Virus record (IMG/VR): IMGVR_UViG_3300047494_000107 | Span: 46,534-110,533 of that record | Reading direction: 5' to 3' (one strand) | Origin: a virus | DNA length: 64,000 nt | Shown: one piece after another, positions 16,084-40,070 of the stretch | How positions within the stretch are numbered: the first letter of the stretch is position 1 | Layout: every line of letters starts with the position of its first letter | Notes under the pieces: generated by a model | Told to the model about the DNA's origin: nothing | Databases searched by the model: none | Seen by the model: only the letters and a program-made list of their open reading frames with translations | Made by a program: the position numbers and the translations under genes

Positions 16084-16836
16084 ATGAGGTTCGGCCGTCT
16101 GCAGCACGATCCCGACACGCTCGCAAGGGCGCCGTCGCTTCGGTTGTCGGCGGTCGAACCACCAGCCGTGCTTGACCGGTCATCGGTCAACGTCAATCTC
16201 GGCCTCTACCAGAACGACGTCTATCCGGATTGCACCGCGGCAGGCGCGTTCAACTATGTCTGCTGCATCGCCGCGTTGAACGGCTACGGACTCCCGATCG
16301 ACAACACAAAGGCCCCGACGTTCTACGCCGCTTGTATCGGTTGCGCGGACACGCCCGAAGCGATCGCCGCTACCGACGGTGCTTTGATGACCGACGTCAT
16401 CGCGAGGCTCGGGAGCCATGGCCTGGATATCGGATCGCAGACCCTTGTCGGGTTCGGAGGCACAATCCCTCTACGACGTATACAGCTTGCTTTGTCGCTC
16501 GCTCAGGTCGGCGCCGGTTATTGGGGCATTGACGTTTATCAGAACGACATGGACAATGTCGGCAAGGTCTGGACAACGGACTACAGCCCTGGTCCTGTCG
16601 AAGGCGGCCATTGCGTCGTCGGGTTCGACTACGCTGGACTGGGCAACAACGACGTCGTTCGCATCGCTACGTGGGGCGCTTGGCAGATGGCAACTTGGGC
16701 GTGGGTAGACGCACGCCTTCAAGAAGCGCACGGCCTGGCGTTCCGAGATTTGACACCGGCAAGTGGAAAATACTGGTCAGGTGTGACGTACGACACACTT
16801 CTTGCCGAGGCGGGTGTGTCGCCGGTCACGGTCTGA
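16084..16836 (+). CDS. Papain-like cysteine peptidase
   Basis: NDVYPDCTAAG (catalytic Cys), GGHCVV (catalytic His), IATWG. Confidence 0.7.
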   Translation: MRFGRLQHDPDTLARAPSLRLSAVEPPAVLDRSSVNVNLGLYQNDVYPDCTAAGAFNYVCCIAALNGYGLPIDNTKAPTFYAACIGCADTPEAIAATDGALMTDVIARLGSHGLDIGSQTLVGFGGTIPLRRIQLALSLAQVGAGYWGIDVYQNDMDNVGKVWTTDYSPGPVEGGHCVVGFDYAGLGNNDVVRIATWGAWQMATWAWVDARLQEAHGLAFRDLTPASGKYWSGVTYDTLLAEAGVSPVTV

Positions 16837-16841
16837 CGTCG

Positions 16842-17972
16842 ATGAGCGCCGTAGACGAAGCGGACATCAAGCGTTTCGCGGAAATATACCGCGCCGCAGT
16901 AGAATCTGGCGCTCAACCAAAAGGCGCGACATTCGGTGTAGGGCGGCGATCGGCGCTTTGGGACGCCTGCGAGAAGGGCGGCTGGAGCCGCAACGAGGGA
17001 AATTACCGGCTAGACAGAGCGCTCCGCGCTGGGCTGTTGGATGGGTTGCGCGTTGAAGTCTCATCCATAGAAGCCTTCACGGTTCAAGAACTGCCATCAG
17101 CGGAAGGCCCGATCGAAGACCTCATCGACCGGATGGCCGTTCAGTTTCAGCGCCAAAAGGTTGCCCGCGAAGCACGGACGCTCATTCAGGTGCAGGTGAA
17201 CATCGAGGGCGCCTACGGTATCTGTCATATGGGCGACCCGCATCTTGACGATAACGGATGCGACTGGACCACACTTCGCCGCCACATAGAGGTCATCAAG
17301 CGTACCGAGGGCTTGTTCGGCGCGAATGTGGGAGACTATCAGAACGGCTGGATCGGCCGTCTAGCGCGTCTATGGGCGAACCAGTCGACGAGTTCTCGTG
17401 ACGCGCAGCGCTTGGTTGAGTGGTTCGTCAATGAGGTTCGGTGGCTGTACCTTGTGGGCGGCAATCATGACGCCTATTGCGGTGTCAACGATCCGGTCAA
17501 ATGGTTCGCCGGCCAAGTCGGCGCGCTATACGAGCCTCATGGCTTGCGGCTGAATCTGGCGCAGTCAGACGGGTCGTCTGTCCGTGTTCATGCTCGCCAC
17601 AACTTCTCGGGCACGAGCATGTGGAACCCGACCCACGGCGCGGCGAAGAAGGCTAGGTTCGCGTGGGAGCGCGACCATATCTACACCTGCGGGCACCTGC
17701 ACCACGCTGGGCACCAGGAAGTGCTATTCGACGATGGACCTGATCAATTCATCGCGCACGCTATCCGGCTTGGGTCGTACAAGGTCTACGATGACCACGC
17801 CGACGCGAACGGGTTTGACGGCGTCAATATCCCAGCCGCGGTGACGGTGGTCAATCCGACCGCGAAGACTCAGGCAGGGCGCGTGTCATTCTTCTGGGAA
17901 CCGGAAGCTGCCGCAGACTACCTGACGTTCTTGCGGCGCCCGAAGTTCCGCGTAAAAGCCGCGACAAGCTAG
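16842..17972 (+). CDS. Calcineurin-like metallophosphoesterase
   Basis: GDPH, GDYQN, GNHD, HARH and GHLH motifs. Confidence 0.85.
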   Translation: MSAVDEADIKRFAEIYRAAVESGAQPKGATFGVGRRSALWDACEKGGWSRNEGNYRLDRALRAGLLDGLRVEVSSIEAFTVQELPSAEGPIEDLIDRMAVQFQRQKVAREARTLIQVQVNIEGAYGICHMGDPHLDDNGCDWTTLRRHIEVIKRTEGLFGANVGDYQNGWIGRLARLWANQSTSSRDAQRLVEWFVNEVRWLYLVGGNHDAYCGVNDPVKWFAGQVGALYEPHGLRLNLAQSDGSSVRVHARHNFSGTSMWNPTHGAAKKARFAWERDHIYTCGHLHHAGHQEVLFDDGPDQFIAHAIRLGSYKVYDDHADANGFDGVNIPAAVTVVNPTAKTQAGRVSFFWEPEAAADYLTFLRRPKFRVKAATS

Positions 17973-18217: not shown

Positions 18218-18344
18218 CCTGCGCACCCTGTTTTGATATTTCGCCGTAGCTTTTCCCACTTGCGTTCGATGTCAGCCCGCCGCACTGCTCGTGAAACTAA
18301 AACAGCGGTTACGGCAGCGCCGAGCAGCCCTAGATACACGCAAA

Positions 18345-18656
18345 TCATAGGCAGTTCTCAACCTCCATGGCTTCAACTACGCGCTGAGCTATCAGGCGCG
18401 GAGAAATGTGCTCCTCGTAGAAGGCGGTCCCGGCTGGACACTTACGGCGTTCGTCATCCCGGTATTGGCGGACGATCTCTTCTCGGACCACCCGAGCTAC
18501 GCGCTTCACGACAGCGCCCGGCGATAAGCAGCTTGTTGAGGCTGTCGGCGGCGTCGCAAACCGCTTTGGCGCAGGCGGCCTATCCGTCACCTGGAAGGTG
18601 TCATTTCTGCCGCCTTTCCTGCGATTGCCCTCAGCTAAAGGTTTGACCGTGCTCAT
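18345..18656 (-). CDS. Hypothetical protein starting MSTVKPL
   Basis: ATGA overlap with upstream gene; GGAG RBS. Confidence 0.55.
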   Translation of the reverse strand: MSTVKPLAEGNRRKGGRNDTFQVTDRPPAPKRFATPPTASTSCLSPGAVVKRVARVVREEIVRQYRDDERRKCPAGTAFYEEHISPRLIAQRVVEAMEVENCL

Positions 18657-19015
18657 ATCGCAACTCCGTCGTGATACCAAGCGCTATAACTGAGCGGCGC
18701 ACCGCTTACCGGAAAGCCAATCAGCTTAGCGACAGACGCATAGCCTTTGCACACGCGCGATTCGTCGTAGTGGCAACCCCAGGGTCGCCCTGCGGCTCTT
18801 GCCATATCCAGTATTTGGATATTGGTGGGTAGACATCCGTAATTTTGGGCTTGCTCTGCCCACTCATTGACGCTGAACGGGCATGTCAAACATCCGTCGC
18901 ATCCGGCAGATAGCGCTTTTGAGACGGTTGCCGAATCAAGGGGCGTTAATTCAGACCGACCGTCGACTACCGCCAGTTCACGCAGCGCATCAGATAAAGG
19001 TTTGACCGTGCTCAT
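18653..19015 (-). CDS. Cys-rich hypothetical protein starting MSTVKPL
   Basis: CDGCLTCPF...NYGCLP...WGCH...VCKG; lower GC than neighbours. Confidence 0.6.
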   Translation of the reverse strand: MSTVKPLSDALRELAVVDGRSELTPLDSATVSKALSAGCDGCLTCPFSVNEWAEQAQNYGCLPTNIQILDMARAAGRPWGCHYDESRVCKGYASVAKLIGFPVSGAPLSYSAWYHDGVAI

Positions 19016-19055
19016 GTTTCGTCCTTTGGCGCGACCATATGTCGCCTTCCGTAAA

Positions 19056-21555
19056 TCACAGTGGCCTCAAGGGCTGCGGCCGCACCTGATCCGCAAGGGC
19101 GGATATTCGCGCGCGTCGATCCGCTAATATTCTTTGCACGCGAGGGCTGGCCGTGTTGAGCGTCGTCTTGAACTCCACCTTTGCCGCCAGTTCGCGCAAA
19201 GCCTCGGCCACGAAGCGCCGGTCATCGCCAGAAACTGTGATCGTCACATCGTCAGGGTCCGACTCGCTCATCCCCCACCCCTCCGCTGTTCAATCCGCCC
19301 GCATGGTGCCCAATCCGCTAGATCGGCCCAGGCGTTGGCAATGTCGGCCGGGGTTCCTGTCGGGCTAGCGTCGCCATGAAACCATATGCCGTGCGCCGCC
19401 ACGACGTTCATGAGAAGCCGCTGGCGCTCGCTTATGGCCGGCTCTTGGGACTTGTCAGTCATCGCGGGAACCCTGCCGCTACAACTAGACGGACGCTAGC
19501 CATTCGTGACCACGGCCAGCGGAACCTATGCCGACCTGTGCAAGACCATGCGCGCCGCTCATCACGGTCTTTGACCCAGATCCAAAGACGGCCGATTGTC
19601 GAATCAGCCATTGCGCAACTCCCATGCCGCACCCACTTGTTCCGGCGTCATTGCCGTCGATGACACCACAATCGCGTATGCATCCTGCCCGGTATCGGCA
19701 TCATACAGGCGAGGTGCATTTCGGCCGTCGAATACACGCTGGATCGCCTCATCCAGATCAGCGGCATCGACCTGCTCTTTCCAGTCTCTGAACAAGACTT
19801 CGTACTTGGGAAGTTTTGTCGCCTCACTCATCCCCCGCCCTCCTTCGCTCAATCCACACCCGCAGTTCCCGCGCCGCATGCAGCAACTCCGAACTCCAGC
19901 GCCTAGGCACGCCGCTCCATTCCGTGAACGGGCCGGCAGGTCGCCACCACACGCCGGGCAGGCGCTCCCACAGGTCGAAGCCTCGCACGGTCAAAGGCGC
20001 ATCCATGCCGGCGCACCATACCTGGATCATCTTGGGGCCGTAGGGTAGTTGGCTCATGCAGGAGCGCCAGTCGTCGCCGACGGGAAATGGGGTGCTTTCG
20101 AAGGTGAGGGAGGCGTTAGGCATGCTTAACCGACCCCGCGCCCATTAATTCAGTGATCTCATTGAAGCACAGAACGGCGGCAAACCCCTCGTCCGTTCCA
20201 AGCCTGTCGGCGATTTCCTCACACGCGGCCAACGAAGCGGCCAGAACGCCCCGCAGCCTCTGTATCTCCCCCGCGCATTCCCCCAACGTCGCCGAGCGCA
20301 GCCGACCCGCGCCGTCCGGTCGCCACCAGAGGTTGCCGTAGAATTCGTCGGTGGGGGTTGGATCAGATTGGGTTTGGTCCGTCGTGCCGGCGACCACAGC
20401 AAAACCGCATCGCTCAAGGGCCGCCAGAACCTCGGTCGCCACACGCCGCGCATCGCTGTTGCCGTCGCCGCACACGCATTCGATTTCCCGTGCGATGATT
20501 GAGATCGGCGTCGATTCAGGCATGCGGATTCACCTTCTGCATGGCCGCAACCACGGCAAGCGTCACCGCTTTGACGCCGCGCGTAACCGGCCAGAGACTG
20601 GGATTGCCCGCAAGTTCGTCGCCAGGGTCGGCCTCGTTCGCCGCCTGATCAAAAATTTGCACAAGGTCCTGCAACGCCAAGCCGGGGGCAATCGCTTTAC
20701 ACGACAACACCATTCCGGCGTGCTCCGTGGTGAGGGTTCCGAAGTCCGGGGCTGTGGATTCAGGCAGTTCGGTCATGTCAGCTTACCTAGCAGGACGCGA
20801 GCCAATATCTGGTGCGGTTTGTCTGCCCACCAATCAGCGTAGATGCTTTCCGTTCCGTCGAGCGGACCGAATGCGAGCTTTTCAACTTCGCGTCTATCCA
20901 GCGCGTCTGCCGACTTCATAGCGATTGCCCGCTCAAGGGTGGCGAGATCATCCTTTGATCGGCGTGGGTTTATTTCGCAGCCGCTTTGGTCCAGCGCGCG
21001 GCGCAATGTGGCCGTCTTGCGTTCAGCTATCGCGGCGGCCTCGGTCACGGCGGAGTAGCCGGTCGATTCAGGCATGGACGCGCGCCTCCCGTATGTTGTC
21101 GAGAACCAACCGGCGCGCATACTCCGCATTGAGGCAATAGCAGTCCGTCACCCACCCTCGCCGGGTCCACTTTTGGACCTCGGCGGGGCCGACGCGCCAA
21201 GCCCCGGATGGCGTGCCGCATTCATCGTCCAACGTCACGCCGCAGAACGGGCATTCGTCGGTGTCGGGGTCGAGGCCGATGCAGGGTGGTTCTGTTGATT
21301 CAGGTTCCCCACTCACCGCCGCACCCCCAACGCTTCCTTCATCCACCCGACCCCATGCAGGAACCAAGCTTGGCCAGGCGTGCAATTCGGCATGATCGCC
21401 CGCGCGGCCGCGATGACCTCCACGGGCACGACGATTTGGGCGGTTTCCTCGAACTGATACCACCCGTTCGGCCCGAAGCCACCGCCGCCTCGTTTGAGGG
21501 TGATGGTGCGTTCAGGCTCGGTCAGGTCGCAGGGGGCGATCAGTTCGTCCGTCAC
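19056..21555 (-). other. Run of small translationally coupled hypothetical genes (19056-19271, 19268-19462, 19604-19831, 19824-20123, 20116-20523, 20516-20776, 20773-21075, 21068-21316, 21313-21555)
   Basis: Consecutive minus-strand ORFs with 4-8 nt start/stop overlaps. Confidence 0.6.
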
Positions 21556-21728
21556 CGCCGCACCTTCTTCGCTTCCGCCCGCAGCCCCGACTGGATTAAC
21601 CGCCGCAGCGTCTCCATCTCTGAGCCGATCTGCTCGGACAGCCGGAACTCAGCGACGCTCGCCCACAGACTCTCTGGCAGGGTCACGCTCTTTCGGATCA
21701 TAGGCTCGGGCGGCTTCGGCTTGCTCAT
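21552..21728 (-). CDS. Ribbon-helix-helix type regulator
   Basis: IRKSVTLPESLWASVAEFR...SEMETLRRLIQSGL; preceded by TTGCAT-17-TACCAA. Confidence 0.65.
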   Translation of the reverse strand: MSKPKPPEPMIRKSVTLPESLWASVAEFRLSEQIGSEMETLRRLIQSGLRAEAKKVRR

Positions 21729-21827
21729 GCCTCTTGGTAGCAGGATGCAGCGCACCATGCAAGCGCGACAGTGGTGAGATTGGTGTTGCGCGGCGGCGGG
21801 GGATGTGCTGTAAGTTGCGAACAGAAT

Positions 21828-22964
21828 ATGGAGGACGGGATGAGCGACTATCGGATCACCTACGATACGCTGCTAGGTGGCTACTCAATTGAGCGGCTAG
21901 CGACTGGCAAGCGAGGATATCGCGGCTGGCTCAGGATCAGCAACCACCGCACCTATGACGATGCCAAGGCCGCTTTCACCGCATTCACCTAACCCTTGAT
22001 CGAGGTAGCCATGAGCCAGGAGGATTACGACGTAGGCTACGAAGAAGGTCGCGCCTCCCGCCAATGGGAAATCGACCTAACCGCCGAGGACACGATGCCG
22101 TCCGGACACACCGACGACCGCGCTATGACGCCATATCGGGCCGCGCTGCTTGCGCGCCTTCCGGTGGCGCGGATCGCGCTGGAGACACAAGAGCGGCGGC
22201 AGCTAAACGAAATGGTGCGCTTCGGCTGGGTCGAAGATGACGGCACCGTTTACCGCCGCGTTGAACAATCAACCTGATCGCCGGAGGACCGAACGATGCC
22301 TTACGCCACACACAGCCTCGAACGCACAAGTCCCAAAGGCCGGGGGCAAAAATTCCTCGGTCGCTGCATTCGATGCGGCATGACAGACTTGCCAGCCAGC
22401 GCCGCGTTTGATCCGTGCGAGAATCATGCGCGGGTGAGCGACGATGAGGCGTTGTTGCTAGCCATCCGTGGCCCTTCAACCTAATCCAGGAGCCTGCCCC
22501 GTGGTGGACTGGCGTGCGCGATTGCAGGAATTTCGGGGTAAATTCAACCTCTGGCACCGCGCTGTTTGCGAATGGCGCCGAGGTCAAATCCGCGTCTGGC
22601 CGCTCAACCCCAGCGACGACTTTTCGGGCGAATTGCCGAAAGCCTACAAGGGCACGCCGGTCGTCTGGAACAATCTGGGCGTTTCGAAACCACCCAAGCC
22701 ACCAGCCAATTGGTCGCCGCCGCCCGGCTGGGTGCCTTTCGACAAACGCAAATCAACCTAACCCCCATGGCCCGATGCGCCCGCTGCGACGCCCCCGAAA
22801 GCCAATGGCGCATCCACCCATGCCCAGCGTGCGGCTATCCAGGCCCCGACACACGCCCGCCAGAGCGCGTCACGCAGGACGAAGCTGACCGGCATGCGCG
22901 GATTTGGGGCGACGAACATGTCTATGCGCCGGGGGCGGATGGGTGTGTGGTTTGTGGGTGGTGA
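21828..22964 (+). other. Divergent cluster of small hypothetical genes (incl. 21828-21992, 22011-22277, 22296-22484, 22468-22761)
   Basis: GGAGG/GAGG RBSs, co-oriented short ORFs ending at a terminator. Confidence 0.5.
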
Positions 22965-22976
22965 GGGTGGAGACGC

Positions 22977-23008
22977 AAAAGGACCGCCCGGTTTCCCGAG
23001 CGGTCCTT
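22977..23008. terminator. Intrinsic terminator between convergent units
   Basis: AAGGACCGCCCGG-tttc-CCGAGCGGTCCTT hairpin with a T-run on the minus strand. Confidence 0.8.
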
Positions 23009-23031
23009 CATAAAATTTGTCCCAGCGTCAA

Positions 23032-23289
23032 TCACCAATGGGTCAGCGGTGCCCGCACGGTGACTGCCCAAGGCGTGGTGGCTGGGGCGGTTTGCAGAAC
23101 AATCCCGACGCTCACTTTCGTTACCCAGACACCCTTATACTGAATGACAACACCAGGAGAGACCTTCGAAAATTGTGCTCCTGTGTTTTGCAGCACAACA
23201 CCAGGAGAGACCTTCGAAATCTCCGCCTGCTGTGCCATTGCGATGCTCGGAAGAAACAACATCAGCCCAGCGACAATCCAACGGATCAC
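23032..23289 (-). CDS. Small exported protein with three (S/T)KVSxG(V/I)V(L/I)Q repeats
   Basis: Signal peptide MIRWIVAGLMLFLPSIAMA; near-identical DNA repeat ACAACACCAGGAGAGACCTTCGAAA twice. Confidence 0.75.
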   Translation of the reverse strand: MIRWIVAGLMLFLPSIAMAQQAEISKVSPGVVLQNTGAQFSKVSPGVVIQYKGVWVTKVSVGIVLQTAPATTPWAVTVRAPLTHW

Positions 23290-24392
23290 GGGATCGTCTC
23301 CACCCCAAAGTCAACGCCGGCAGCGGTCAAATCAGACGGCAACCATGCAACGCCAGTGTTGGGATTTGTCGCCTGAATATAGCTGCTGAAGTTCGAGAAG
23401 CTATTCGTCGGAGCATAGCTGCTGCTGAGATAGTCCGTGCCGCCGACCCGCGTATCGAACTCGAAGTGCTGAGGACCAGACGAACCAACCAATGCCTGAG
23501 CGCTCATCGCTACGCCAAGCACGCTATAACTGCCGCTGGGTAGCGTGTTGTAGATGGCGCAGTTGTGCAGAACGTTGTTCGATGCGCTGTAGGCGTAGTT
23601 AGCTTGGTTCAGCGTCGAAGCATTCCAAATCGACGAGCAGACGTTCGTGCCACTCAAGCCGGTGCTATTGCCATTTGCGTTTGTGTAGGCCGTGAAGACG
23701 CCCATGGCGCGCGTGTCGGTGGTGGCGACGATGACTTCGGACCAGAGACCTAAGTTAGTTTGGGGCACTGCGAACTCGACCTGGTTAAGCGTCGTAGCTC
23801 CATCGCCATTCGTGACGTTACCAGTATAGTCACAGACTTGTGTGCTGTTACTATAAAGAGTAACTTCCCCGCTTGATCCGTAGTTCACATACATGTCGAA
23901 TTGATCAAGCGACGCAGGGATCGCGGATGAACATGTGACAAGGTCGGTAAATGTGCCCCCTGATGTGCGGGATGATATCTTTACCTGGCCATTCGTTCCG
24001 GTGCCTCGCACAATTAATGTCGGGTTTCCGCTGCTATCGTTAATTCGCAACATCTGATAGTTGGACGCCGTCGTGGTTATGCAAGTATTTGAGTTATCGG
24101 TGCAATACTGCCCGTGAATCCAAATAGTAGAATTTCCTGCGAAAGTAGACGTTTGAAACCTGTTCACAGGCGGATCAGAGGCGGAAGTATCGGAAACGTC
24201 ATACGAGCCACGGGACCAGGCTGAGCGGTAAAGCCCAGATGGCGCAGTAAATCCACACGTGCCACCACTCAAGCACGTAAAGTCCGAGTCCTCTTTACCC
24301 ACGAACAATAGCGTCGCTTGCGCCGAGTGCGCTGCACCCAGCATCAGCCCAATCAGCACCAATAGCGGGAAAAGCCGACGAATGAAGTTCAT
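23286..24392 (-). CDS. Exported beta-rich protein resembling a phage virion protein
   Basis: Signal peptide ending AQA; 8 Cys; C-terminal TNPNTGVAWLPSDL. Confidence 0.75.
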   Translation of the reverse strand: MNFIRRLFPLLVLIGLMLGAAHSAQATLLFVGKEDSDFTCLSGGTCGFTAPSGLYRSAWSRGSYDVSDTSASDPPVNRFQTSTFAGNSTIWIHGQYCTDNSNTCITTTASNYQMLRINDSSGNPTLIVRGTGTNGQVKISSRTSGGTFTDLVTCSSAIPASLDQFDMYVNYGSSGEVTLYSNSTQVCDYTGNVTNGDGATTLNQVEFAVPQTNLGLWSEVIVATTDTRAMGVFTAYTNANGNSTGLSGTNVCSSIWNASTLNQANYAYSASNNVLHNCAIYNTLPSGSYSVLGVAMSAQALVGSSGPQHFEFDTRVGGTDYLSSSYAPTNSFSNFSSYIQATNPNTGVAWLPSDLTAAGVDFGVETIP

Positions 24393-24997
24393 GAACCATC
24401 TCCAATAAAGACATAAGCTGCGGCTGAGCCGTTATTCGATATGACCGTCGCACCAATGATTGATTTCGACCCATAGGTGCCCGTGAAGCTGTGTGGCGAA
24501 GTCAGCGTGGCCCCCGAGCCGGCCGACAGAGTGACCTTGGCGGTGCCGCCCTGGATCATCCCGATGTTACACCCGGCCGCTAGGCTGTTAGGTAATGTGA
24601 CGGTTACAGCGCTGTTGGAGCTGAAGTTGATCAAGGTGCCGCAGTCAGAGGCTGCTAGCGTATACGTGGTGCCGCTCTGCGTCGAAACTGCGCCGTAGAC
24701 GGCACCGAACGTCTGTGGACCCGTCCAAGTGTTGGTGCCCGCGAGAGAGACGCCGCCCGTGCTGCATGTCATAGTTCCACTCGAAATTGTACACCCCGAC
24801 AGATTAAGAGGCGTTGCTGCTCCAGCTCCGCCTGTGCCTCCATATATTTGAGACGTTGTGCCGGACGGAATAGCCGACGTAATCGCGCTGGAAAGTTGCC
24901 CCGATGTCACCCCCGGCGGCGGGATAGGTCCGCCAGCAAACGCCTGCGAAACCCCGAGCAGTGCGCACAGCCAAAGTGCGACAAATTTTACCATCAC
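24389..24997 (-). CDS. Exported protein with tail-fibre-tip-like domain
   Basis: Signal peptide ending AFA; LAGTNTWTGPQTF and QSGTTYTLAASDCG...AVTVTLP...YVFIGD. Confidence 0.75.
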   Translation of the reverse strand: MMVKFVALWLCALLGVSQAFAGGPIPPPGVTSGQLSSAITSAIPSGTTSQIYGGTGGAGAATPLNLSGCTISSGTMTCSTGGVSLAGTNTWTGPQTFGAVYGAVSTQSGTTYTLAASDCGTLINFSSNSAVTVTLPNSLAAGCNIGMIQGGTAKVTLSAGSGATLTSPHSFTGTYGSKSIIGATVISNNGSAAAYVFIGDGS

Positions 24998-25602
24998 TGG
25001 AACGCCTCGCCGGCCAGCGTCGCGGACGCTGAGACCATGATGCAGTTAATCGCCGCATTCCCAACCGTGGGGTAATCCCACTCATAGCCGCCGCCCGGCT
25101 GTATGCGGACGCCGTAATTGAGAACAGCCGACGCACCGTCAGAGCGGCACCAAGCGTCGTTGCCGCTGCCCGCAGTTGCGAGGCTGTAAATGACGACGCG
25201 CGCCCGCGTGCCGGTCGAGGCGGCCACGACGGGGGTTGCGGACGTCGAAGCGGAGACCGAAAAAGCGGACGTGGTCGCCGCCACAGGGGGTGCCGCAGCG
25301 GTGATATGGGACGGAACACCCCCGTCAGAATTGAGCGTATAAGGCCAAAAGTTGCCGGTTGGCGGGGTCACAAACCAAGGCGAAGAAGACGACCCCTGAG
25401 CCCCTTGGGTGACCGTACCGCCCCCTCCGCCCCCGTTTAGGTTGTAGACCACAGACGCCCTGGAGCAGTCCGACAGCAAGACCTGGTTGAGTGGTACCCC
25501 GGCAGGACAACCTGTCACCGCATTGCCGGGCGTCTGAGCACGGGCGCCTGTGGCGCCCCAGACCCCGCAAATGAGAAACACTAAAGCAAGCAGAATCCGC
25601 AT
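24994..25602 (-). CDS. Exported beta-rich protein
   Basis: GGAGG RBS; signal peptide MRILLALVFLICGVWGATGARA; 4 Cys in the mature part. Confidence 0.75.
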   Translation of the reverse strand: MRILLALVFLICGVWGATGARAQTPGNAVTGCPAGVPLNQVLLSDCSRASVVYNLNGGGGGGTVTQGAQGSSSSPWFVTPPTGNFWPYTLNSDGGVPSHITAAAPPVAATTSAFSVSASTSATPVVAASTGTRARVVIYSLATAGSGNDAWCRSDGASAVLNYGVRIQPGGGYEWDYPTVGNAAINCIMVSASATLAGEAFQ

Positions 25603-25729
25603 GACCGCCTCCAAGGAGGCAGCATTTTAAGACGTCTCAGTCTTTAGACGGCAGGGTTGCTGTCTGCCTTCAGGTCGACAAGTATGTTCTTATAGTCACA
25701 AGGTAGCAACACGGCGTTAAGCGGTCTAA

Positions 25730-25916
25730 AATCCTTTCAACTCGTACTCCGCCTATTGAGCTTTTTGACCGCCTAGAGGTGCAAAAAGTTGAAAGGATTG
25801 GCGTATATACGCGGCTGTCGTCGCATTACAAAACCGCTGCACTACCGCTGTGCTAACCCGGCGGACTGTTGTTTTCGATATATTTTATGGCGGCTCTAAC
25901 CGCTAATTTCAACTCG
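25730..25916. promoter_or_regulatory. attP region with candidate integrase arm-type sites
   Basis: 13-bp inverted repeat AATCCTTTCAACT (25730-25742) / AGTTGAAAGGATT (25787-25799); TTTCAACTCG at 25735 and 25907, on either side of the core; palindrome GCGTATATACGC at 25801-25812. Confidence 0.7.
25826..25862 (-). other. attP core: 5' half of tRNA-Thr(UGU), 37 nt
   Basis: GCCGGGT-TA-GCAC-AGCGGTA-GTGC-A-GCGGT-TTTGTAA gives acceptor 5' strand, D arm and anticodon loop (TGT); tRNA similarity then stops; 46 bp from integrase stop. Confidence 0.85.
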
Positions 25917-27006
25917 CTTTCTGGGCCACTTTCGACTCATGCCGCTTGCCCGACCTCAGTTTACGCATCGCACCCTCAGCAAACGTCCGGTCAGGTCTGA
26001 CGTATACCGACAGCACATTTCGGCTTTTGTGGCCGGTTATCGCCCTGATTTGGTCCTCCGAACACCCTGCAGCCCCGAGCGCCGTGGCCAGAGTGCGCCG
26101 CAAATCACGAAACTGCAGATCGTCCGGCAGCCCTGCCAGCGCTCTTAGGCCGGCAAATCGGTGTTGAAAGTCACTTTCAGCGTAGGGTCGCCCCGTGGCC
26201 TCGGAGACGACGATAGGGCCATTTTCGACTCGCGGGGTTGTCTCCAGCAGCCGGCGGAGTTCAGGGAGCGCCGGCACCCAGACTGCGGCGCCCGTCTTCT
26301 CCTGGCGCAGCAAGACAGCCTTCCCGTCATACGCCGCCCAGGACAGCTTGCGGAGGTCGGCCGGGCGTTGGCCCAGGCACCAGCCCAGCATCACGGCCAA
26401 GGCCATGCTTGGGCGGCCAGCTTCAACGGCCTTGGCGCAGAAAACGTCGCGCTCATTGATCGTCCAGACCCGTGAGCGACTATCCGGCACGGACACCATC
26501 ATCTTGAGCGCCGGGTTCTTGTCAATCCAACCCTCGTCGACCCCAAAACTCAACAGGCGGCGCAGAGCGGCAATCGCGTTACGGGCGGCGGATTCACCGC
26601 GATCGGCTTTCAGACCCCGGTACCAGTTCTTAACCATTTTACGCTCAAGCAGGGCTACAGAAGATTCACCCGCAGCGTCTAGCGCCGGCTTGATGTTGTA
26701 GAGGTAGTCGCGCTGAGTTCGCGGAGCCATGTCGACCATGAACTCCTCGTCGGCCTGGAACAGGTCGTGAAGAGCCAGTAGGCTATCCGACCGGTAAGAT
26801 GGACCTGTCTTGGGTTCTTGCTTACGGCGCCACTGATCCAATTCCGCGTTCAGGCGCTCAGCTGCGACGATGGCCTGTATGCGGTCGTCGGGGAGACGAC
26901 GAGGGATGAACCCGGCGGCGAGGAGTTTTGGAGTCGGTTGCCAATACCAGAGCGTACGGCCTTTAAGGGGCCGCTTTACCAGATACCGGACGCCGATGTC
27001 CCGCAC
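25909..27006 (-). CDS. int: Tyrosine integrase
   Basis: GQRPADL (R), QEKTG (K), FRDLRRT, ITGH, SVY catalytic residues. Confidence 0.95.
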   Translation of the reverse strand: MRDIGVRYLVKRPLKGRTLWYWQPTPKLLAAGFIPRRLPDDRIQAIVAAERLNAELDQWRRKQEPKTGPSYRSDSLLALHDLFQADEEFMVDMAPRTQRDYLYNIKPALDAAGESSVALLERKMVKNWYRGLKADRGESAARNAIAALRRLLSFGVDEGWIDKNPALKMMVSVPDSRSRVWTINERDVFCAKAVEAGRPSMALAVMLGWCLGQRPADLRKLSWAAYDGKAVLLRQEKTGAAVWVPALPELRRLLETTPRVENGPIVVSEATGRPYAESDFQHRFAGLRALAGLPDDLQFRDLRRTLATALGAAGCSEDQIRAITGHKSRNVLSVYVRPDRTFAEGAMRKLRSGKRHESKVAQKAS

Positions 27007-27265
27007 TCATCCGCTCCATCAAGATCGCTCGCTCATCTTCGCGCGGGTCGCCAGCGCCGACAACCTGCCATCGCCGCCGCACCCACGCCTCGACGGCCTC
27101 GACGGCGTAGAGCCCATAGAACGGGTCGGGCTTGGGGAAGTCAGGGGGCAGGTTGGCCTGCACCCATAGGACGGGGCGGCGAAACACCCGATCGGCCACC
27201 TCGCTGATCGTCATCGTCAGCGGTGTCCAATCGTACCGCTTGTGCCGTGGAGCGCGGGTCATCAC
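26963..27265 (-). CDS. Excisionase-like protein
   Basis: MTISEVA...DFPKPD...YAVEAVEAW AlpA/Xis-like pattern directly upstream of int. Confidence 0.6.
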   Translation of the reverse strand: MMTRAPRHKRYDWTPLTMTISEVADRVFRRPVLWVQANLPPDFPKPDPFYGLYAVEAVEAWVRRRWQVVGAGDPREDERAILMERMSAGHRRPVSGKAAP

Positions 27266-29433
27266 CCGAACCTGTTGCTGATATGGGCGTCGACCTTCGT
27301 GGGGAGCCCTGCCGCCCAGGAGGGCTTGACGGTCATCAGGTCAACGAAGACGGGAAGAAGTCGCTCAGCGTCGTCCTCCCTGACCTCGGCGGCGATGCTG
27401 TCGTGGACGTGCAAGACGACGGGAAGGCCGCCGTGCCTGTCCATGTTGTCGAGTGCGATCGCGAGAAGGTCAGCGGCAATGGCTTGGTCTTGGTTTTCGA
27501 CGAGGATGGTGTGGTATAGCGGCCGACGCGTAACAGACGCGCCTCGTGGGTTGAGCGCTGTGAGGATAGGGTTGCCCCACTCGTCTAGCCCTTCAAGGCG
27601 AGGCGCCCAGTAGCGAAGCAACCGGCCAGCCGGTAATCTGCAGCAAAGAGCACCGTCTAGCATGAAGTAAGAACAATAGCCAAACGGGCCGACAGGAAAC
27701 TCCCTGCCGGGGTGCTTTACCGCGTTAATCGCAGCACTGCTTGTTGCATACCAATACTTTACAATTTCAGCGTTAGCCGCACGCCACTTCGCAACAATAG
27801 GTTTTGCTTGGTCTCTGTTCATGCGTATGTTGTATGCCATGCTCATAATGACAAACACACCCGTTCCGCCACCGTAACCACAACCGAGCACACCGACCTT
27901 TCCCAATTGACGCTCCTCTTTTGTAACCTCCGATACTGGTTTCCCGACCATTGGGGCGGCAGCTATACTGTATACATCATCGCCGTTAGCAAAGGCGTCT
28001 ACGATATTCTGTTGCCCTGCCAGCCAGGCTATGATGCGCGCTTCGACCTGCGCGAAATCTCCCTGGAGGAGGGTACGGCCGCCGGGGGCGCGGAGCGTTC
28101 GACGCAGCATCCGGGAGACAAACGGCAGCACAGGTCCGTACGCAGTGCGGATCGCGATAGCATCGCCGCTTTGGCCGTAGGCAACTGCTTGGGCGAGCGC
28201 GTCAGCTTGCAACTTGCGGAGCAACTTCTTGTCGTCACCACTAGGTTTACGTCCCAATATGAGGGCGGCCTGCCGCTCGACGTAGCCTGCGTCCGGCAGC
28301 GCATTCCTGGGCAGGTTATGGGGCTGCCAACCTCCCCCGCCAGCCCAGCGCATCGTGGTTTGGGCGCCGCCAAGAATGAACGCACCACGTAGACGACCGT
28401 CGACGCCTGCAGCCCGCTCCATGACCGACAGCTTCTTCGCGGATATCTTCGCCGCATCAGCACGCATCTGCAGGACGTCACGCACACGGCCGCACGGCTT
28501 GCCGTCTGGTCCTTCGTAGTCCTCGGGTAGGTCGCCGGCAAGTAAGTCTATGACGTCATTTTTGCGTAGACGATATCTCTTCGGGTTAAACTCATCCGTG
28601 TTGTCGTCGTCGTCCAAGGGGACGTCATCCTCGGGCTTGCGATTCGGATCGACTATGAGCGGGAGGCGAACGCCGCGCTCAAGCAGCCACGCCTTCAAGT
28701 CCTGCACAGCCGTCAGCTTCGGTATCTTGCCGTTCGTGACCCTGGCGACCTCGGCGTCTAGCCGCAGCGTCTCGTATTCCGACGCCTTGCGCATACCAAT
28801 CACGAGCGGCATGTCGGCCAGAATGCCGCGGTCGTTGATCCGCATGTCGACGCCTGGCATGCGCGGCCACGGCTCAGCGGTTATCCAAGGCGGCGTCGCA
28901 GCGCCAGTAGCCTCTTCGGCCAGAACGTCGGTGATGCAGTACTGACCGAATGCGATCAGCTTGGGGCGCTTCTTCTCAGACCAGAGCGCCGCCCAGGACG
29001 TGTTCTTCGCCTGCGTAAGCTCTTTGACGAGCGCCGACCCCGCCTTATCTTTGACTGTGCTCGCGCCTGTAGCCCGGCTGGCGCCATCCAACGATCGAGG
29101 TAAATTAGCCCCGACAGCTCGCAGCATGGTGTCGGCCCACTGCCAATCTGGCACTTCCGGCCAACCATATTTGCCGACGCAGACGTGTCGCCACATTAAC
29201 CTCTCGAACCCCGCATTCCACGCGCATAGCGGCCAACCACGTTGAATATGCTCTGCAAGCGCCTCGGGTATCGGCTGACCGTGCCACCACAGTTCTGGCG
29301 GCGCTGAATCGCCGACAACGTGATAGGCCAGCATAATCGCTTCGGTAGACGGATGCGCCGCGTAGTGATGAGCGCCGAGTTTTATGTCGGCTTCGCTCCA
29401 AGTCTCGAAATCCAGGCTGAGAGCGCGCATCAC
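27262..29433 (-). CDS. Family A DNA polymerase
   Basis: Exonuclease LDFET and AWNAGFER; motif A GDFAQVEAR; motif B RQLGKVGVLGCGYG; motif C LHVHDS. Confidence 0.95.
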   Translation of the reverse strand: MMRALSLDFETWSEADIKLGAHHYAAHPSTEAIMLAYHVVGDSAPPELWWHGQPIPEALAEHIQRGWPLCAWNAGFERLMWRHVCVGKYGWPEVPDWQWADTMLRAVGANLPRSLDGASRATGASTVKDKAGSALVKELTQAKNTSWAALWSEKKRPKLIAFGQYCITDVLAEEATGAATPPWITAEPWPRMPGVDMRINDRGILADMPLVIGMRKASEYETLRLDAEVARVTNGKIPKLTAVQDLKAWLLERGVRLPLIVDPNRKPEDDVPLDDDDNTDEFNPKRYRLRKNDVIDLLAGDLPEDYEGPDGKPCGRVRDVLQMRADAAKISAKKLSVMERAAGVDGRLRGAFILGGAQTTMRWAGGGGWQPHNLPRNALPDAGYVERQAALILGRKPSGDDKKLLRKLQADALAQAVAYGQSGDAIAIRTAYGPVLPFVSRMLRRTLRAPGGRTLLQGDFAQVEARIIAWLAGQQNIVDAFANGDDVYSIAAAPMVGKPVSEVTKEERQLGKVGVLGCGYGGGTGVFVIMSMAYNIRMNRDQAKPIVAKWRAANAEIVKYWYATSSAAINAVKHPGREFPVGPFGYCSYFMLDGALCCRLPAGRLLRYWAPRLEGLDEWGNPILTALNPRGASVTRRPLYHTILVENQDQAIAADLLAIALDNMDRHGGLPVVLHVHDSIAAEVREDDAERLLPVFVDLMTVKPSWAAGLPTKVDAHISNRFG

Positions 29434-29978
29434 ACAGCCGGCTTGGCTCGTATACCGCCAATTTCAACACGGTCATCGTTGGCGGTCGTCCAGTCGCGCC
29501 AAACATCGCCGACAATGCCAGTTCCTGGGAACAAGTCGTCTAACGTATCATCCCGTTTGGCGTTCAGCAGAGAAAACACCCACTCACAAAACCGAGCAGG
29601 CTTAGCGCCCGTAAGCCCTTTTTTGAGTGTGATATTTTCAGCTAGCCAATCGCGACGAGTTGCCTCTTCCCGGGTCACCTTTCTTCCGCCCCGGAAGATC
29701 ACAGGTTCCCACGCGTAAGCAACTCCGACGTTCGGCTTAAAAATCGCGAACGGTTTGGTCCACGCACCCACTCTGACATCGTCCGGGCAGAGCGGCAGTA
29801 TTGCGCGTAAACTGGTCGACGACGCACTCAGCGCCCATCCGTCAACATACTCATCCGAGAGGCGCTGAATAAGCCGGCGATGCTCACCGATGTTATCCCA
29901 GTCAGTCGCGTCAGCATGGTGTTTGACATAGAGCCGCCCACAGCCAAGGTACGGCGGGTCCGCGTATGCGAACTTCAT
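29430..29978 (-). CDS. DNA amino-methyltransferase (N6A/N4C)
   Basis: YADPPY catalytic motif; DLFPGTG SAM-binding motif. Confidence 0.85.
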   Translation of the reverse strand: MKFAYADPPYLGCGRLYVKHHADATDWDNIGEHRRLIQRLSDEYVDGWALSASSTSLRAILPLCPDDVRVGAWTKPFAIFKPNVGVAYAWEPVIFRGGRKVTREEATRRDWLAENITLKKGLTGAKPARFCEWVFSLLNAKRDDTLDDLFPGTGIVGDVWRDWTTANDDRVEIGGIRAKPAV

Positions 29979-30038
29979 CCCACCCTCCACACGTAGAAAG
30001 GGCGTCACCCCGCAAAGAGCGACGCCCTTGTTCAGCGA

Positions 30039-31064
30039 TCAGCGCGGCGGAGCATACCCGGGATACTGGCCGGGCGGCGGAGCAGGGGGCTGCTGCGGGA
30101 AGTTCTGGTACGGCGGAGCAGGCGGAGCAGGCGGAGCAGGCGGAGCAGGCGGAACGGCCGGTGTCAGGTGGCCCTGGTACGCAGGAGCCGGTGCCGGCTG
30201 CGGGTAGCCCTGGTACGCAGGAGCCGGTGCCGGCTGCGGGTAGCCCTGGGGCGCATACTGAGGCGCGGGCGGCTGCGCTCCCGGATAACCCGGCTGCGGC
30301 GCCACGTACTGCGGGGGTGGCTGATACGCCGGCTGTGGCGTCTGCGGAGGGGCATTCCACGGCTGCGGCTGTTCCGGCACCGGATACCCCTGGAAGGCCG
30401 GCGCAGCTGGTGCCGACGGCGGAGCAGCAAACGCTCCTGGAGGACCTGCAGGCGCGGCGCCCGCGATCGGCGCGAACCGCTTCTGCACATCTTCCAGACT
30501 ACGCTCATTCGTCGACAGACGCTCACCGTCCCTGGCGAACTGGATCGTGTCGAGGTAGATCGTGATGCCGCGGTTCGTCACGGCGCCGGTCTTGCGGTCC
30601 TTGTATTCGAACTCACTGATCTTGATCTCGGCGATGACATAGCAGCCGCTGTAGATCGTCGACGCTGGCGCCGGGAACGCATTCGCGCCGAGCACGAACG
30701 GCACTTTCGCCGATGAGGCATTGATATACCACTTGCCCTGGTACTCGGGACCCTTGGCTTTGCCGGTCTTGACCGATACCGACGATCCGTTCTTCAGCGG
30801 CGACTGAATGAGGTTCTGCTTGACCTTGTCCGACCCACTGCCGCTCGCATCCGAGAACGCCGCGTCCGCAACGCGCAGAATGGCCGCGTAGATGTTGGCG
30901 ATATCCTCTTGGTCTTCGAGGATCAGGTTCGTCCCGTAGTCGTAGACCTTGTTTCCATCCTTGTCCGTGTAATCTTTCTCGCGCGGTGCCGAGATGTTAC
31001 AGTACGACGTACGGGCGACCCTCTTCAGGACATAGTTTTCCTGGGCCTTCGGTTTATCAGCCAT
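30039..31064 (-). CDS. Single-stranded DNA-binding protein (DUF2815-like) with Pro-rich tail
   Basis: SPLKNG, YINASS, IYSGCY, GITIYLDTIQFARDGERL. Confidence 0.85.
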   Translation of the reverse strand: MADKPKAQENYVLKRVARTSYCNISAPREKDYTDKDGNKVYDYGTNLILEDQEDIANIYAAILRVADAAFSDASGSGSDKVKQNLIQSPLKNGSSVSVKTGKAKGPEYQGKWYINASSAKVPFVLGANAFPAPASTIYSGCYVIAEIKISEFEYKDRKTGAVTNRGITIYLDTIQFARDGERLSTNERSLEDVQKRFAPIAGAAPAGPPGAFAAPPSAPAAPAFQGYPVPEQPQPWNAPPQTPQPAYQPPPQYVAPQPGYPGAQPPAPQYAPQGYPQPAPAPAYQGYPQPAPAPAYQGHLTPAVPPAPPAPPAPPAPPYQNFPQQPPAPPPGQYPGYAPPR

Positions 31065-31078
31065 AGATGTCAGACTTT

Positions 31079-32332
31079 CTACTGGTGGGTTAAGGCGGGA
31101 AAATGCTTCGCCGTGATCGGTTCGAAGAGCGGCTTCACTGTCTCAACTGTATCATCTGTCTCATCGACCCTGACCAAGGTTGTAGCACCCTCGGGGCGAA
31201 AAACAAGCGTATTCACGAGCCACTTGTGCTGAGATGGGACGACCTTCTCGACCTGGGCCGGACTCAGCAGTTTCGGCTCCGTATAGAGTTCCTCGCGAAA
31301 AACGCCTGTTGTCAGTAACGTCTCTTCAGCCGCGACGGGGTCCACCCACTTGCGGTTACCTGTACGACTCTTGAGACCCCAGCCTGGTACCTTGATACCG
31401 GCCTGTAGCATATCGACGGCGTGCTGCTTCACCATGGTGATCCACGCGGCGTAAACCGCTTCGCGTTCCAGAATCATTGATACATCTGCGCCGCTCATGC
31501 CGACCGGATCAGGCAGCACCGGCATCGGCCTCAGATCAGGCATTGGCGAGACGACCGTCATCTCCTGGCCGATCGGTTTGAACTTCGTCTGCGCGACATC
31601 CAGAGCCCGCTGCGCCATGGCCGGGCATGGACGTTTCGCGCCTGGGCACCAGCGGCACTGCTTCTCGCCAGGATTGAGCGGCGGGTTGGGGCTGAGTGCC
31701 GCCCGCATCGCCAAGTACATCGTATTGCCCCAGCCGTAGACATCGACGATATCGTGAATGTAGGTTTTCACGCGCTCGTCTTCGTACGGCGCCCTCGGCT
31801 GAATGATGATCGTCTCGACGTCTTTCCAGCCGCCCGCACAGGCGAAATTGACAAGGGCGAGGAAACTATACGTCTTCAACTGCGGAGCGTCGGCGGCGAC
31901 GGGCAGCATACCCGTCTTCAAGTCGATGACGGTGATCCGCCGCGTCGCCCAGTTCAGTAGAAGGATGTCGACGGTGCCCCCGAGTTCACCCCACAAAGGG
32001 TCCTTGGTGTCGAACGGCTGAGCCGACAGGAATTGCTCGGAGCGCATCTCCGTCGTGTTGGGGTCCCACCGGGCCTTCGTCTCATCAATGGCGAGTTGAA
32101 CGCCATCAGACATGACGTCGTCAAACTCAATCTTGTCGTCCTCGACGACAATGATGCGACCAACCATTTCGGCGGGGGATGGGCCGCCTTTCAGCGCCGC
32201 TTCGAGGACTTGATGGCACGCCGTGCCTTCGCGCGCGGGGCGGCCTCCTTTGGAAGGTATCCCCTCCGACATCTGCGTCGAGCCGATGCAAGTCGTGATG
32301 CGGTCAGAAGACGACGGCCGGAAGCGAGGCAT
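31079..32332 (-). CDS. DUF2800-like PD-(D/E)XK nuclease
   Basis: PSSSDR...C, EGTACH, GTVD, VIDLKTG, QL..Y, QPR, PGEKQCRWC. Confidence 0.85.
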   Translation of the reverse strand: MPRFRPSSSDRITTCIGSTQMSEGIPSKGGRPAREGTACHQVLEAALKGGPSPAEMVGRIIVVEDDKIEFDDVMSDGVQLAIDETKARWDPNTTEMRSEQFLSAQPFDTKDPLWGELGGTVDILLLNWATRRITVIDLKTGMLPVAADAPQLKTYSFLALVNFACAGGWKDVETIIIQPRAPYEDERVKTYIHDIVDVYGWGNTMYLAMRAALSPNPPLNPGEKQCRWCPGAKRPCPAMAQRALDVAQTKFKPIGQEMTVVSPMPDLRPMPVLPDPVGMSGADVSMILEREAVYAAWITMVKQHAVDMLQAGIKVPGWGLKSRTGNRKWVDPVAAEETLLTTGVFREELYTEPKLLSPAQVEKVVPSQHKWLVNTLVFRPEGATTLVRVDETDDTVETVKPLFEPITAKHFPALTHQ

Positions 32333-32361: not shown

Positions 32362-33156
32362 CTAGTGAGCAGCGTGTTGCTTTAGCAGCGCGACTTCGGC
32401 TTCGAGAGCTTTTATTCGTTGTTCCAGAATGTCGAAGTTATTCGACACAGCGATGATCGAGGCGCGAGGGTCAGACGCCCAGTTCTCTGGCGTAATCTTG
32501 TTCGGTGTGAGGTCTGCTGGTGTCAGTGTGACCGATCCACCGCCGTCGATTGACGTCACTGGCGGGTCTGCTACCCCCTCTACTACCAGTCCATTAGGGT
32601 ATCCAGGCGGATACTTGATTGGCTCTTGATGATTAAGTGACTTAGCCTCAAGAGCAGCTGGTCCACGCGCAAGCGCATCCTGGTTCTGATATATCCACGT
32701 AGTCGTAGCTGCGGGTTCAGAGGACCAGATAAATGCGCTGGTGCCCCTGCTGACGAGAATACTAGATGTACCGGTAACGACTACGGGGCTATCGGTAAAA
32801 CGGTGTTCCAGAGTCGACGGAAATTCCGCTGCCGCCCGGAACGGGGCGGCCTCTGTCTCCCGCTTCTTCCGCTCTTCCTCGGCCTTATCCGCCGCATACA
32901 TGGCGCCCAGTTCGCCGTTGATCTTCCAATCCTGGTCAACCTGCTGCGCTTGCGGCGACGGGTCTGCAGCCCAGTAACCTTCCAGGCAGTACCAATCCAT
33001 ACCCGTACACACCCAGTGCTGACCGGGGTGCTTGGCGATTTCCGCCTGCATTTCTTGCTCGGCCTTCGAAGGCGTCGTAAATGCGAGGTTGCTCGTCGTC
33101 TGCGCGTTCGCCGACAGAGGGAACATTAGTGCAGCGGCAAGCAGTACGTGCTTCAT
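32362..33156 (-). CDS. Hypothetical exported protein
   Basis: Signal peptide MKHVLLAAALMFPLSANA; C-terminal coiled coil. Confidence 0.65.
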   Translation of the reverse strand: MKHVLLAAALMFPLSANAQTTSNLAFTTPSKAEQEMQAEIAKHPGQHWVCTGMDWYCLEGYWAADPSPQAQQVDQDWKINGELGAMYAADKAEEERKKRETEAAPFRAAAEFPSTLEHRFTDSPVVVTGTSSILVSRGTSAFIWSSEPAATTTWIYQNQDALARGPAALEAKSLNHQEPIKYPPGYPNGLVVEGVADPPVTSIDGGGSVTLTPADLTPNKITPENWASDPRASIIAVSNNFDILEQRIKALEAEVALLKQHAAH

Positions 33157-35540: not shown

Positions 35541-35565
35541 GCCAGCCGCCCGAGGACAATGTCGC

Positions 35566-40062: not shown

Positions 40063-40070
40063 GGAATTTC

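Follow-up and report, generated by a model that had tools for sequence, protein, structure and literature searches.

The folding and assembly of tailed-phage virion proteins is assumed to be cytoplasmic, and the cargo that temperate phages carry next to their attachment sites typically consists of lysogenic-conversion or exclusion genes, of which P22 provides examples. Here we describe an operon of four genes, designated P1 to P4, that is located beside the attachment site (attP) and the integrase gene (int) of the IMG/VR virus IMGVR_UViG_3300047494_000107. The DNA analysed (the window) is the last 64 kb of this record, or 64,000 nucleotides. All four proteins are predicted to carry Sec signal peptides (leaders), and two of them are homologous to virion proteins. 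An initial annotation made from the letters of the window had put the genes forward as a candidate for an undescribed system, and this holds as far as our full-text search of the literature goes, which revealed no account of Sec-leadered tail-fibre proteins in tailed phages. At about even confidence, we favour a reading in which the operon is att-site cargo and specifies a glycan-binding complex that is exported, folds oxidatively and acts at the envelope or surface of the lysogen, rather than a virion part assembled in the cytoplasm.

Several described systems share some characteristics with this operon. Leaderless phage proteins resemble its products most directly, including phrog_6368 and proteins of Brevundimonas phage Strzyga and Loktanella phage pCB2051-A for P3, and phrog_18179 and phrog_8295 for the tip of P2. 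The likeness extends over the whole of mature P3 (residues 27-359), the P2 tip, an N-terminal motif and, in two viral contigs (L014 and L015), a short-repeat partner. These homologues have no signal peptides and no conserved Cys pairs and are encoded in tail modules, whereas the window genes are leadered, Cys-paired and located beside attP. In a similar manner, the C-terminal domain of P2 has the same fold as T4 gp9 and gp10, CBA120 TSP4 and the Pa223 capsid spike (1qex, 2fl8, 7rej, 9ny6), which are cytoplasmic virion parts without disulfides, whereas P2 carries a leader and a Cys pair specific to its family. The att-adjacent morons, such as lambda lom and bor and the P22 exclusion genes, resemble the operon in their position by attP and int, in having their own terminator, in predicted exported products and in the absence of a link to a phage box. 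However, morons are single outer-membrane proteins or lipoproteins, whereas the operon encodes a four-protein fibre/lectin kit of virion ancestry whose expression in lysogens we infer from its genetic context.

Judged by analogy, the nearest cellular precedent is provided by the mosaic adhesive trimer (MAT) fibres of Bdellovibrio bacteriovorus, which are described as leadered, phage-fibre-like extracytoplasmic adhesins with varied tips (Caulton et al. 2024, PMC10769870). Each MAT protein is one long polypeptide whose beta-rich N-terminal domain of ~130 amino acids (aa) is conserved, and many of these proteins have S74 chaperone-protease ends. At the level of such descriptions, MAT fibres and the operon products are alike in being leadered and fibre-like, and they differ in that the operon encodes four small, separate, phage-encoded proteins that belong to an Rhs-linked family.

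The Rhs link leads to the Sec-dependent Rhs/WapA-type toxins. Bacterial relatives of the cassette formed by P2, P3 and P4 adjoin genes for leadered Rhs proteins with a papain-like (C39-like) peptidase domain and a variable C-terminal toxin, which is an HNH domain in one contig (L005). In a survey of polymorphic toxins, tail-fibre repeats appear solely as stalks inside the toxin proteins (Zhang et al. 2012, PMC3482391). The cassette differs from this arrangement in that its fibre and lectin parts do not form internal repeats but are exported as separate proteins from genes upstream of the toxin gene, and in that the phage copy is toxin-less. No description of separate, exported fibre or lectin partners encoded upstream of Sec-dependent Rhs toxins was found in the full-text search.

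Leaders and cysteines of P1 to P4 and the likely virion ancestry of P2 and P3

The four genes overlap at each junction in a manner consistent with translational coupling (TGATG between P1 and P2, ATGA between P2 and P3, GTGA between P3 and P4), and a Shine-Dalgarno GGAGG precedes the P1 ATG at 25602. The operon is closed by a predicted hairpin (-34 kcal/mol, z -5.0; 0 of 200 shuffles equally stable) whose position is given in Table 1. Thus, the coupled arrangement beside attP with its own terminator, as read in the initial annotation, is confirmed by the open reading frame (ORF) coordinates, the junctions and the hairpin.

Each of the four proteins exhibits the basic n-region, uncharged hydrophobic core (~9-17 residues) and A-x-A site expected for Sec export and cleavage by signal peptidase I. 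The cleavage sites are predicted (slash) at GARA/QTPG in P1, QAFA/GGPI in P2, SAQA/TLLF in P3 and IAMA/QQAE in P4, in agreement with the leader ends ARA, AFA, AQA and AMA noted previously. These calls come from our own crude heuristic for P1 to P3, and from inspection by eye for P4, which was outside that ORF set. Given that the +1 residues are Q, G, T and Q, and none is Cys, the four proteins do not appear to be lipoproteins. Of 154 ORFs in the whole 110.5-kb genome, the heuristic flags 14, and several of these calls are doubtful; four consecutive leaders are therefore very unlikely to have arisen by chance. A recount of Cys residues in the mature proteins again gave 4, 4, 8 and 0, and the motifs NTWTGPQTF, QSGTTYTL, VTLP and TNPNTGVAW, which had been read as phage-family patterns, are all present in the sequences. 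Searches of Pfam, NCBIfam and PADLOC (E <= 0.1 for the last) identified no family for any of the four proteins; the PADLOC library dates from 2023, and a defence role remains compatible with the absence of a match there.

P3 consists of the leader, an N-terminal jelly roll of the concanavalin A (ConA)-like type (~27-230) and a second beta domain (~235-368), with eight conserved Cys residues. Residues 27-359 align with positions 2-323 of the 328 in phrog_6368 (E 1.3e-21). Homologues identified by tblastn are located in the tail module of Strzyga, two genes past the tape measure (STRZYGA_00710), and, for pCB2051-A, where the tail genes end (LOKG_00041); the P3 gene of the window is instead found beside attP and int. 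An alignment query was needed to detect relatives in viral contigs, where a scan with the single protein gave no match. The leaderless homologues (from the two phages and from viral contigs L013-L016) start with M-(T/A)-(I/V)-L-F-A-G-G-E, and the predicted mature start of P3, T-L-L-F-x-G-x-E-D, aligns with M-T-I-L-F-A-G-G-E-D of these forms. Signal peptidase I would, according to this alignment, cut P3 exactly where its leaderless virion homologues begin.

The presence of the leader is accompanied by Cys residues in both the P2 and P3 families. Cys 40, 46, 97, 104, 154, 187, 252 and 278 of P3 are conserved in the aligned close leadered clade, and none of the eight is found in the six leaderless virion homologues. 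Three distant leadered forms (L012, L011 and L039) carry a partial set, at positions 154 and 187. All 25 homologues aligned from the leadered group (one sequence being truncated N-terminally) have the P2 pair, Cys119 and Cys143, versus 0 of 9 leaderless homologues. A check suggested with the initial annotation, namely that homologues without leaders should be devoid of these cysteines, has therefore turned out positive. The co-occurrence of leader and Cys pairs in two families supports an extracytoplasmic location and oxidative folding. This switch is new in the present analysis: in each of two families of virion proteins, a sister branch acquired a Sec leader along with conserved Cys pairs, which constitutes a clean evolutionary switch and would make phage receptor-binding parts usable outside the cell.

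An exception to the association of leader and cysteines was seen in a 1.8-Mb low-GC genome (G518; L058 297-2229), which carries a leadered P3 relative with a single Cys. A leadered P4-like partner is found beside it, and both genes adjoin a tRNA-like stretch.

More than 214 homologues of P3 were identified at 50-66% identity, in Mesorhizobium, Bradyrhizobium, Rhizomicrobium, Nitrosospira and soil metagenomes, and isolates of Mesorhizobium and Bradyrhizobium are among the carriers of a close homologue. Among the matches listed, ~115 of 120 have a leader, and the remainder are visibly truncated. The family is sporadic, occurring in 3 of 138 species-representative genomes of one order and in 2 of 401 of the class. 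Longer, fused forms were absent from the results of one search, which is weak evidence on this point.

The AlphaFold2 (AF2) model of P3 has a predicted local distance difference test score (pLDDT) of 86. The best VIA match of its N-terminal domain is 3zyp (Z 16.9, root mean square deviation 2.7 A over 178 residues), and matches from Z 16.9 to 12 include Cip1, polysaccharide lyases (PL) of families PL20, PL14 and PL7, carbohydrate-binding modules (CBMs), sialidase lectin domains, the N-domain of botulinum neurotoxin Hc and phage baseplate CBMs. Over its whole length, P3 matches phage proteins of 320-360 aa in BFVD (TM 0.66-0.74), one of which is annotated as a virion structural protein. A search of PDB sequence profiles with the P3 alignment gave no match at E <= 10.

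Some of these structural matches are to enzymes. Another explanation is that the operon encodes a periplasmic or secreted enzyme set in which P3 would serve as a beta-jelly-roll lyase that remodels the exopolysaccharide or lipopolysaccharide of the lysogen. Matches to the PL20 glucuronan lyase 2zzj (Z 16.5), to PL14, PL7 and PL36 alginate lyases and to Cip1 are consistent with this view, as is the conservation of R56, R61, W91 and Y180. However, several leaderless homologues have Thr in place of the candidate catalytic residue His93, and the lack of conservation of this residue across the superfamily leaves the lyase assignment unsupported. Non-catalytic lectins, CBMs and baseplate CBMs of phages have this fold just as often, and no enzyme family of Pfam or NCBIfam was matched. 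We consider this explanation very improbable.

P2 is composed of the leader, a low-complexity shaft and a C-terminal fibre-tip or adaptor domain of ~100 aa (residues 100-202) that contains the Cys119/Cys143 pair. Its PHROG matches (E 1e-8 to 7e-4) are phrog_21978 (1e-8) and two profiles annotated 'virion structural protein', phrog_18179 and phrog_8295, which are matched at their C-termini; tblastn against the phage collection gave no match. The AF2 model of the C-terminal domain has pLDDT values of 94-98, and its ten best Foldseek matches are all phage virion proteins. Matches at 13-22% identity and with values of 1e-6 to 1e-2 include the Pa223 capsid spike (9ny6_C, 1e-6), KP1 baseplate proteins, N-terminal docking domains of CBA120 TSP4, and T4 gp9 and gp10. 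Homologues of P2 keep the tip and vary in the N-terminal part, a pattern typical of fibres, and leaders are conserved in the top ~40. On the basis of these characteristics, P2 is predicted to be a short fibre that ends in an adaptor domain of the gp9/gp10/TSP4 type.

P4 comprises its leader, three repeats of the type SK-V-S-P-G-V-V-L-Q and a conserved RAPLTHW end, and carries no Cys. Members of its family have a leader, 3-8 repeats of the type S-S-K-L-S-P-G-V-V-L-Q-G and the R-A-P-L-T-H-W end, and one is encoded directly 3' of P3 in every locus that reaches that far. Short-repeat genes likewise adjoin the leaderless phage P3 homologues of L014 and L015. Co-folding of mature P3 with P4 gave a median of 0.78 (best control 0.00), a mark that 58 of 80 solved complexes and 2 of 110 mismatched pairs also attain, although our use of our own alignments makes these counts only roughly valid. 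Contact agreement between runs was at least 85%, with a partner pLDDT of ~52. In the models, the last repeat of P4 (residues 50-68) lies against the N-terminal strand of P3 (residues 28-37) and its C-domain, which supports the view that P4 is a strap binding P3. P3 would accordingly be a two-domain ConA-like lectin, with the last P4 repeat added as a strand between the N-terminal strand and the C-domain. Alone, P4 has a poor Atlas model (pLDDT 0.40), whose beta-solenoid look-alikes should be taken as a hint only.

P1 contains a leader, a Gly-rich linker, a FWPYTLNSDGGVPSH motif and a C-terminal beta domain of ~100 aa with a conserved WCR...C pair. It is rare, with 15 representative matches, and its C-terminal domain is common to small, mostly leadered, distant proteins. 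Its feature neighbours in the Atlas are small viral hypothetical proteins (0.91), which we regard as a lead only, and tblastn with P1 was negative in all the other cassette loci retrieved.

The original proposal that the mature proteins resemble virion domains is thus sustained for P2 and P3, given their PHROG matches, the leaderless homologues in tail modules and the folds shared with spike, baseplate and adaptor proteins. The same cannot be said of P1, which has about 14 distant relatives, most of them leadered, and for which a decoration-like sandwich had been suggested. Overall, we regard export, oxidative folding, virion ancestry and a P3-P4 complex as well-supported predictions of the sequence comparisons and models.

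Rhs-linked relatives and the possible functions of the cassette

Among close relatives (at least 50% identity) whose contigs extend ~1 kb or more beyond the cassette, P2-P3-P4 is accompanied in 8 of 8 cases by a gene for a Sec-leadered Rhs protein with a C39-like peptidase domain (contigs L005, L018, L025, L029, L057, L020, L031 and L036, all distinct); two contigs with ~0.5 kb beyond the cassette are not part of this count. In these relatives the cassette is located immediately upstream of, and on the same strand as, the Rhs gene. A further C39-Rhs gene is situated divergently upstream of a distant P3 relative with 34% identity (L039). The Rhs and C39-like domains were identified by Pfam in L005, L018, L025, L029 and L039, and Sec-type leaders are present at 9 of 9 Rhs N-termini. 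No phage genes were seen around the bacterial Rhs-linked cassettes. The window P3 is 52-66% identical to Rhs-linked copies, compared to 44% and 37% for two leadered copies in phage structural modules (L043 and L012, respectively), and this places the att-site cassette in the Rhs-linked branch. The Rhs link of the cassette family is new in the present analysis and, as read from gene order, shows that this cassette branch works outside virions in bacteria.

One contig of a metagenome-assembled genome (MAG), L005, carries P2-P3-P4 followed by a gene for a 1578-aa RHS-repeat protein with an HNH tip and then a DUF4265 gene (16700-17176), which is probably the immunity gene. Between P4 and the Rhs gene, this contig also encodes a protein of 107 aa that contains a hydrophobic segment and a single RHS repeat (11590-11913).

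Given that the core of the operon is found beside a secreted Rhs gene in soil bacteria, it is most likely an export-adapted receptor-binding kit and not an ordinary virion part. Additional characteristics suggest cargo, including the adjacency to int and attP, the operon's own terminator, the presence of a leaderless tail fibre elsewhere (beside the baseplate genes) and the sporadic distribution of the family. Under the reading we favour, P1 to P4 would be exported by Sec, as their sequences suggest, and would then be stabilised by periplasmic disulfides. In Alphaproteobacteria, the gene order suggests that P2-P3-P4 most plausibly binds surface glycans of target cells on behalf of the C39-Rhs toxin. 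The phage copy, to which P1 was added and from which the toxin is absent, is presumably cargo beside attP that is probably made in lysogens. There, the complex may either shield a receptor at the surface from phages or Rhs-type toxins that arrive from outside, or retarget a resident Rhs toxin. Of the two alternatives offered in the initial annotation, tail modules repurposed outside the virion provide the better fit, since the closest relatives are found in bacterial Rhs operons and not in phages; no observation places any of the four proteins in a virion.

Several observations weigh against the reading just described. The phage has no Rhs gene, and thus any role of the kit without a toxin is a guess. 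Four more leadered proteins, with fibre-like, esterase-like and beta-helix-like characteristics, are encoded in the late structural operon of the same phage, and the leadered P3 and P4 relatives in structural modules of other phages (L012 and L043) suggest that exported proteins of this lineage may have a role in the particle. P1 was found with no other retrieved cassette and has viral feature neighbours, and so could be a virion adaptor. Moreover, Sec delivers proteins only as far as the periplasm, and the outer membrane lies beyond. Finally, the signal peptides were judged by a heuristic of our own.

These points bear on a second explanation, in which P1 to P4 are exported virion appendages: they would fold in the periplasm, as would the other leadered fibre-like proteins of the phage, and dock on finished particles when lysis mixes the compartments, providing disulfide-hardened receptor-binding parts. 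The homology of P2 and P3 to virion proteins is in keeping with this idea, as is the P2 tip, whose fold is that of adaptor domains that dock fibres on baseplates or capsids. The late operon encodes leadered proteins of 938, 152, 658 and 583 aa, two of which share a mature N-terminus as alternative fibres do, in L012 and L043 the genes for leadered P3/P4 relatives come directly after those for baseplate or collagen-like fibre proteins, and P1 looks virus-like and came with no other cassette retrieved. However, the operon is more than 10 kb from the baseplate genes, with the lysis and early-gene regions in between, and more than 20 kb from the fibre-like genes of the late operon, lies beside int and attP, and has its own terminator and no phage box. 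Its closest relatives are in bacterial Rhs operons near which no phage genes were seen, a normal leaderless fibre is already present in the phage, and post-lysis attachment of periplasmic proteins to tailed phages was not found in the literature. We judge such appendages to be unlikely, while still deserving consideration.

One of the structural modules just mentioned, in a 74.5-kb viral contig (L012 8683-12190), has four consecutive genes for leadered proteins right after the baseplate genes, one of which is a P3 relative. Two of the four begin, when mature, with the same sequence (WNSYFAAKQDYPVP), in the manner of alternative fibres that share a socket.

attP, expression context and genome surroundings

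The attP core is identical over 37 nt to positions 1-38 of tRNA-Thr(UGU), and the identity stops in the anticodon loop. It therefore holds the 5' half of the tRNA, unlike the 3' part usually found at such sites. The exact 37-mer was found in 5 of the 401 Alphaproteobacteria genomes sampled, one being the MAG with the Rhs-linked cassette of L005, and its copy in L054 forms part of a genuine tRNA-Thr(tgt) gene. The tRNA half was not called by Rfam, and no complete tRNA was detected in the window by ARAGORN. A promoter-like TTGAAA-N19-TAAAAT was recognised by eye at 25882-25912 on the minus strand, where it overlaps the int stop codon ahead of the tRNA half; a promoter scan did not call it. A terminator scan of the minus strand from the tRNA half to P4 revealed nothing convincing, its one consensus match being a weak 5-bp stem inside P1. 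As read from this arrangement, the operon of the unintegrated phage would follow a promoter of the tRNA type, and integration would set the promoter of the host tRNA-Thr gene before P1-P4 and the phage promoter before the rebuilt tRNA.

A 9-bp box, CTTGATACA, recurs in the phage, with 33 copies in the window at no more than one mismatch versus ~6.5 expected, and it has zero copies from 18338 to 31391, the stretch that contains the operon. The operon is probably transcribed from a tRNA-type promoter, judging from its position, and this context, together with the absence of a phage-type box, suggests that it is made in lysogens.

This expression context is also relevant to a third explanation, in which the complex is purely a shield against superinfection or toxins. 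Here, the lectin complex would occupy the lysogen's own glycan and block related phages or kit-using Rhs toxins, with no link to a resident toxin. The att-adjacent position is typical of lysogenic-conversion or exclusion cargo, the kit is receptor-binding by ancestry, the phage lacks a toxin gene, and the probable tRNA-type promoter context would be constitutive, all of which conform to a shield. Nevertheless, PADLOC gave no match, known exclusion proteins are small lipoproteins or membrane proteins and not four-protein fibre kits, and binding to the producer's own surface is an assumption. The proposal also overlaps the glycan-binding cargo reading, from which it differs only in the role assigned. 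As a separate explanation, a pure shield seems rather improbable to us.

A broader proposal can be put forward tentatively, and we think it somewhat doubtful as a whole. P2-P3-P4, assembled from tail-fibre, adaptor and lectin parts of phages that were adapted to export, may provide target recognition for a class of C39-Rhs toxins that is undescribed, exported by Sec and probably secreted by the type II route, and temperate phages may trade toxin-less copies that retarget or neutralise toxins in lysogens, or that arm virions outside the cytoplasm. If this were true, receptor-binding hardware would shuttle between virions and secreted bacterial weapons by means of a leader-plus-disulfide switch. 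A kit that aims Rhs toxins would explain how the Sec-dependent Rhs toxins of Gram-negative bacteria find their targets, and would offer swappable, disulfide-stable binding modules. If the kit arms virions after export, it would represent a new assembly route for tailed phages.

The source record, of 110,533 bp, has direct terminal repeats and is rated complete. It represents a contractile-tailed, temperate phage of ~60% GC, and no RHS repeat was found in its whole 110.5-kb genome; the toxin gene and putative immunity gene that adjoin the bacterial cassettes are not found beside the phage copy. The main features of the window are given in Table 1.

Table 1. Locations of the operon and of other features in the window
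Feature	Position in window	Strand	Description
Sheath and tube genes	just upstream of window start
Tape-measure gene	start of window
Baseplate genes, leaderless tail fibre, endolysin	5.9-14 kb
Endolysin	13380-13946
Intrinsic terminator	22977..23009	-	closes operon; 14-bp stem, GAAA loop, U-tract
P4	23032..23289	-	85 aa
P3	23286..24392	-	368 aa
P2	24389..24997	-	202 aa
P1	24994..25602	-	202 aa
attP core	25826..25862	-	37 nt; 5' half of tRNA-Thr(UGU); 223 nt upstream of P1
Tyrosine integrase (int)	25909..27006	-	Pfam PF00589 Phage_integrase, E 1.8e-13; phrog_1, 1.9e-32
Family A DNA polymerase, single-stranded DNA-binding protein (SSB), exonuclease	27-32 kb

In the late structural operon mentioned above, the four Sec-leadered proteins are encoded at 33417-42009 of the genome (4.5-13 kb ahead of the window; L048 3418-12010), just before the sheath gene. 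The 938-aa protein has a C-terminal GDSL/SGNH esterase domain, the 583-aa protein is a right-handed beta-helix, and the mature N-terminus QTPPDSSLP is common to the 938-aa and 658-aa proteins. Such leaders suggest that export in this phage extends to a whole series of proteins resembling fibres and depolymerases.

Two additional leadered ORFs are found among the replication genes, both on the minus strand. One, at 32362-33156, encodes 264 aa with a cleavage site at ANA/QTTSN, and the other, at 33572-34033, encodes 153 aa with a site at AKA/QSAPP; neither has a match in Pfam or PHROG. Two genes past the endolysin, a lipoprotein-like ORF without a family match (15560-16081, plus strand) has the lipobox LAAC/AG and may encode the outer spanin.

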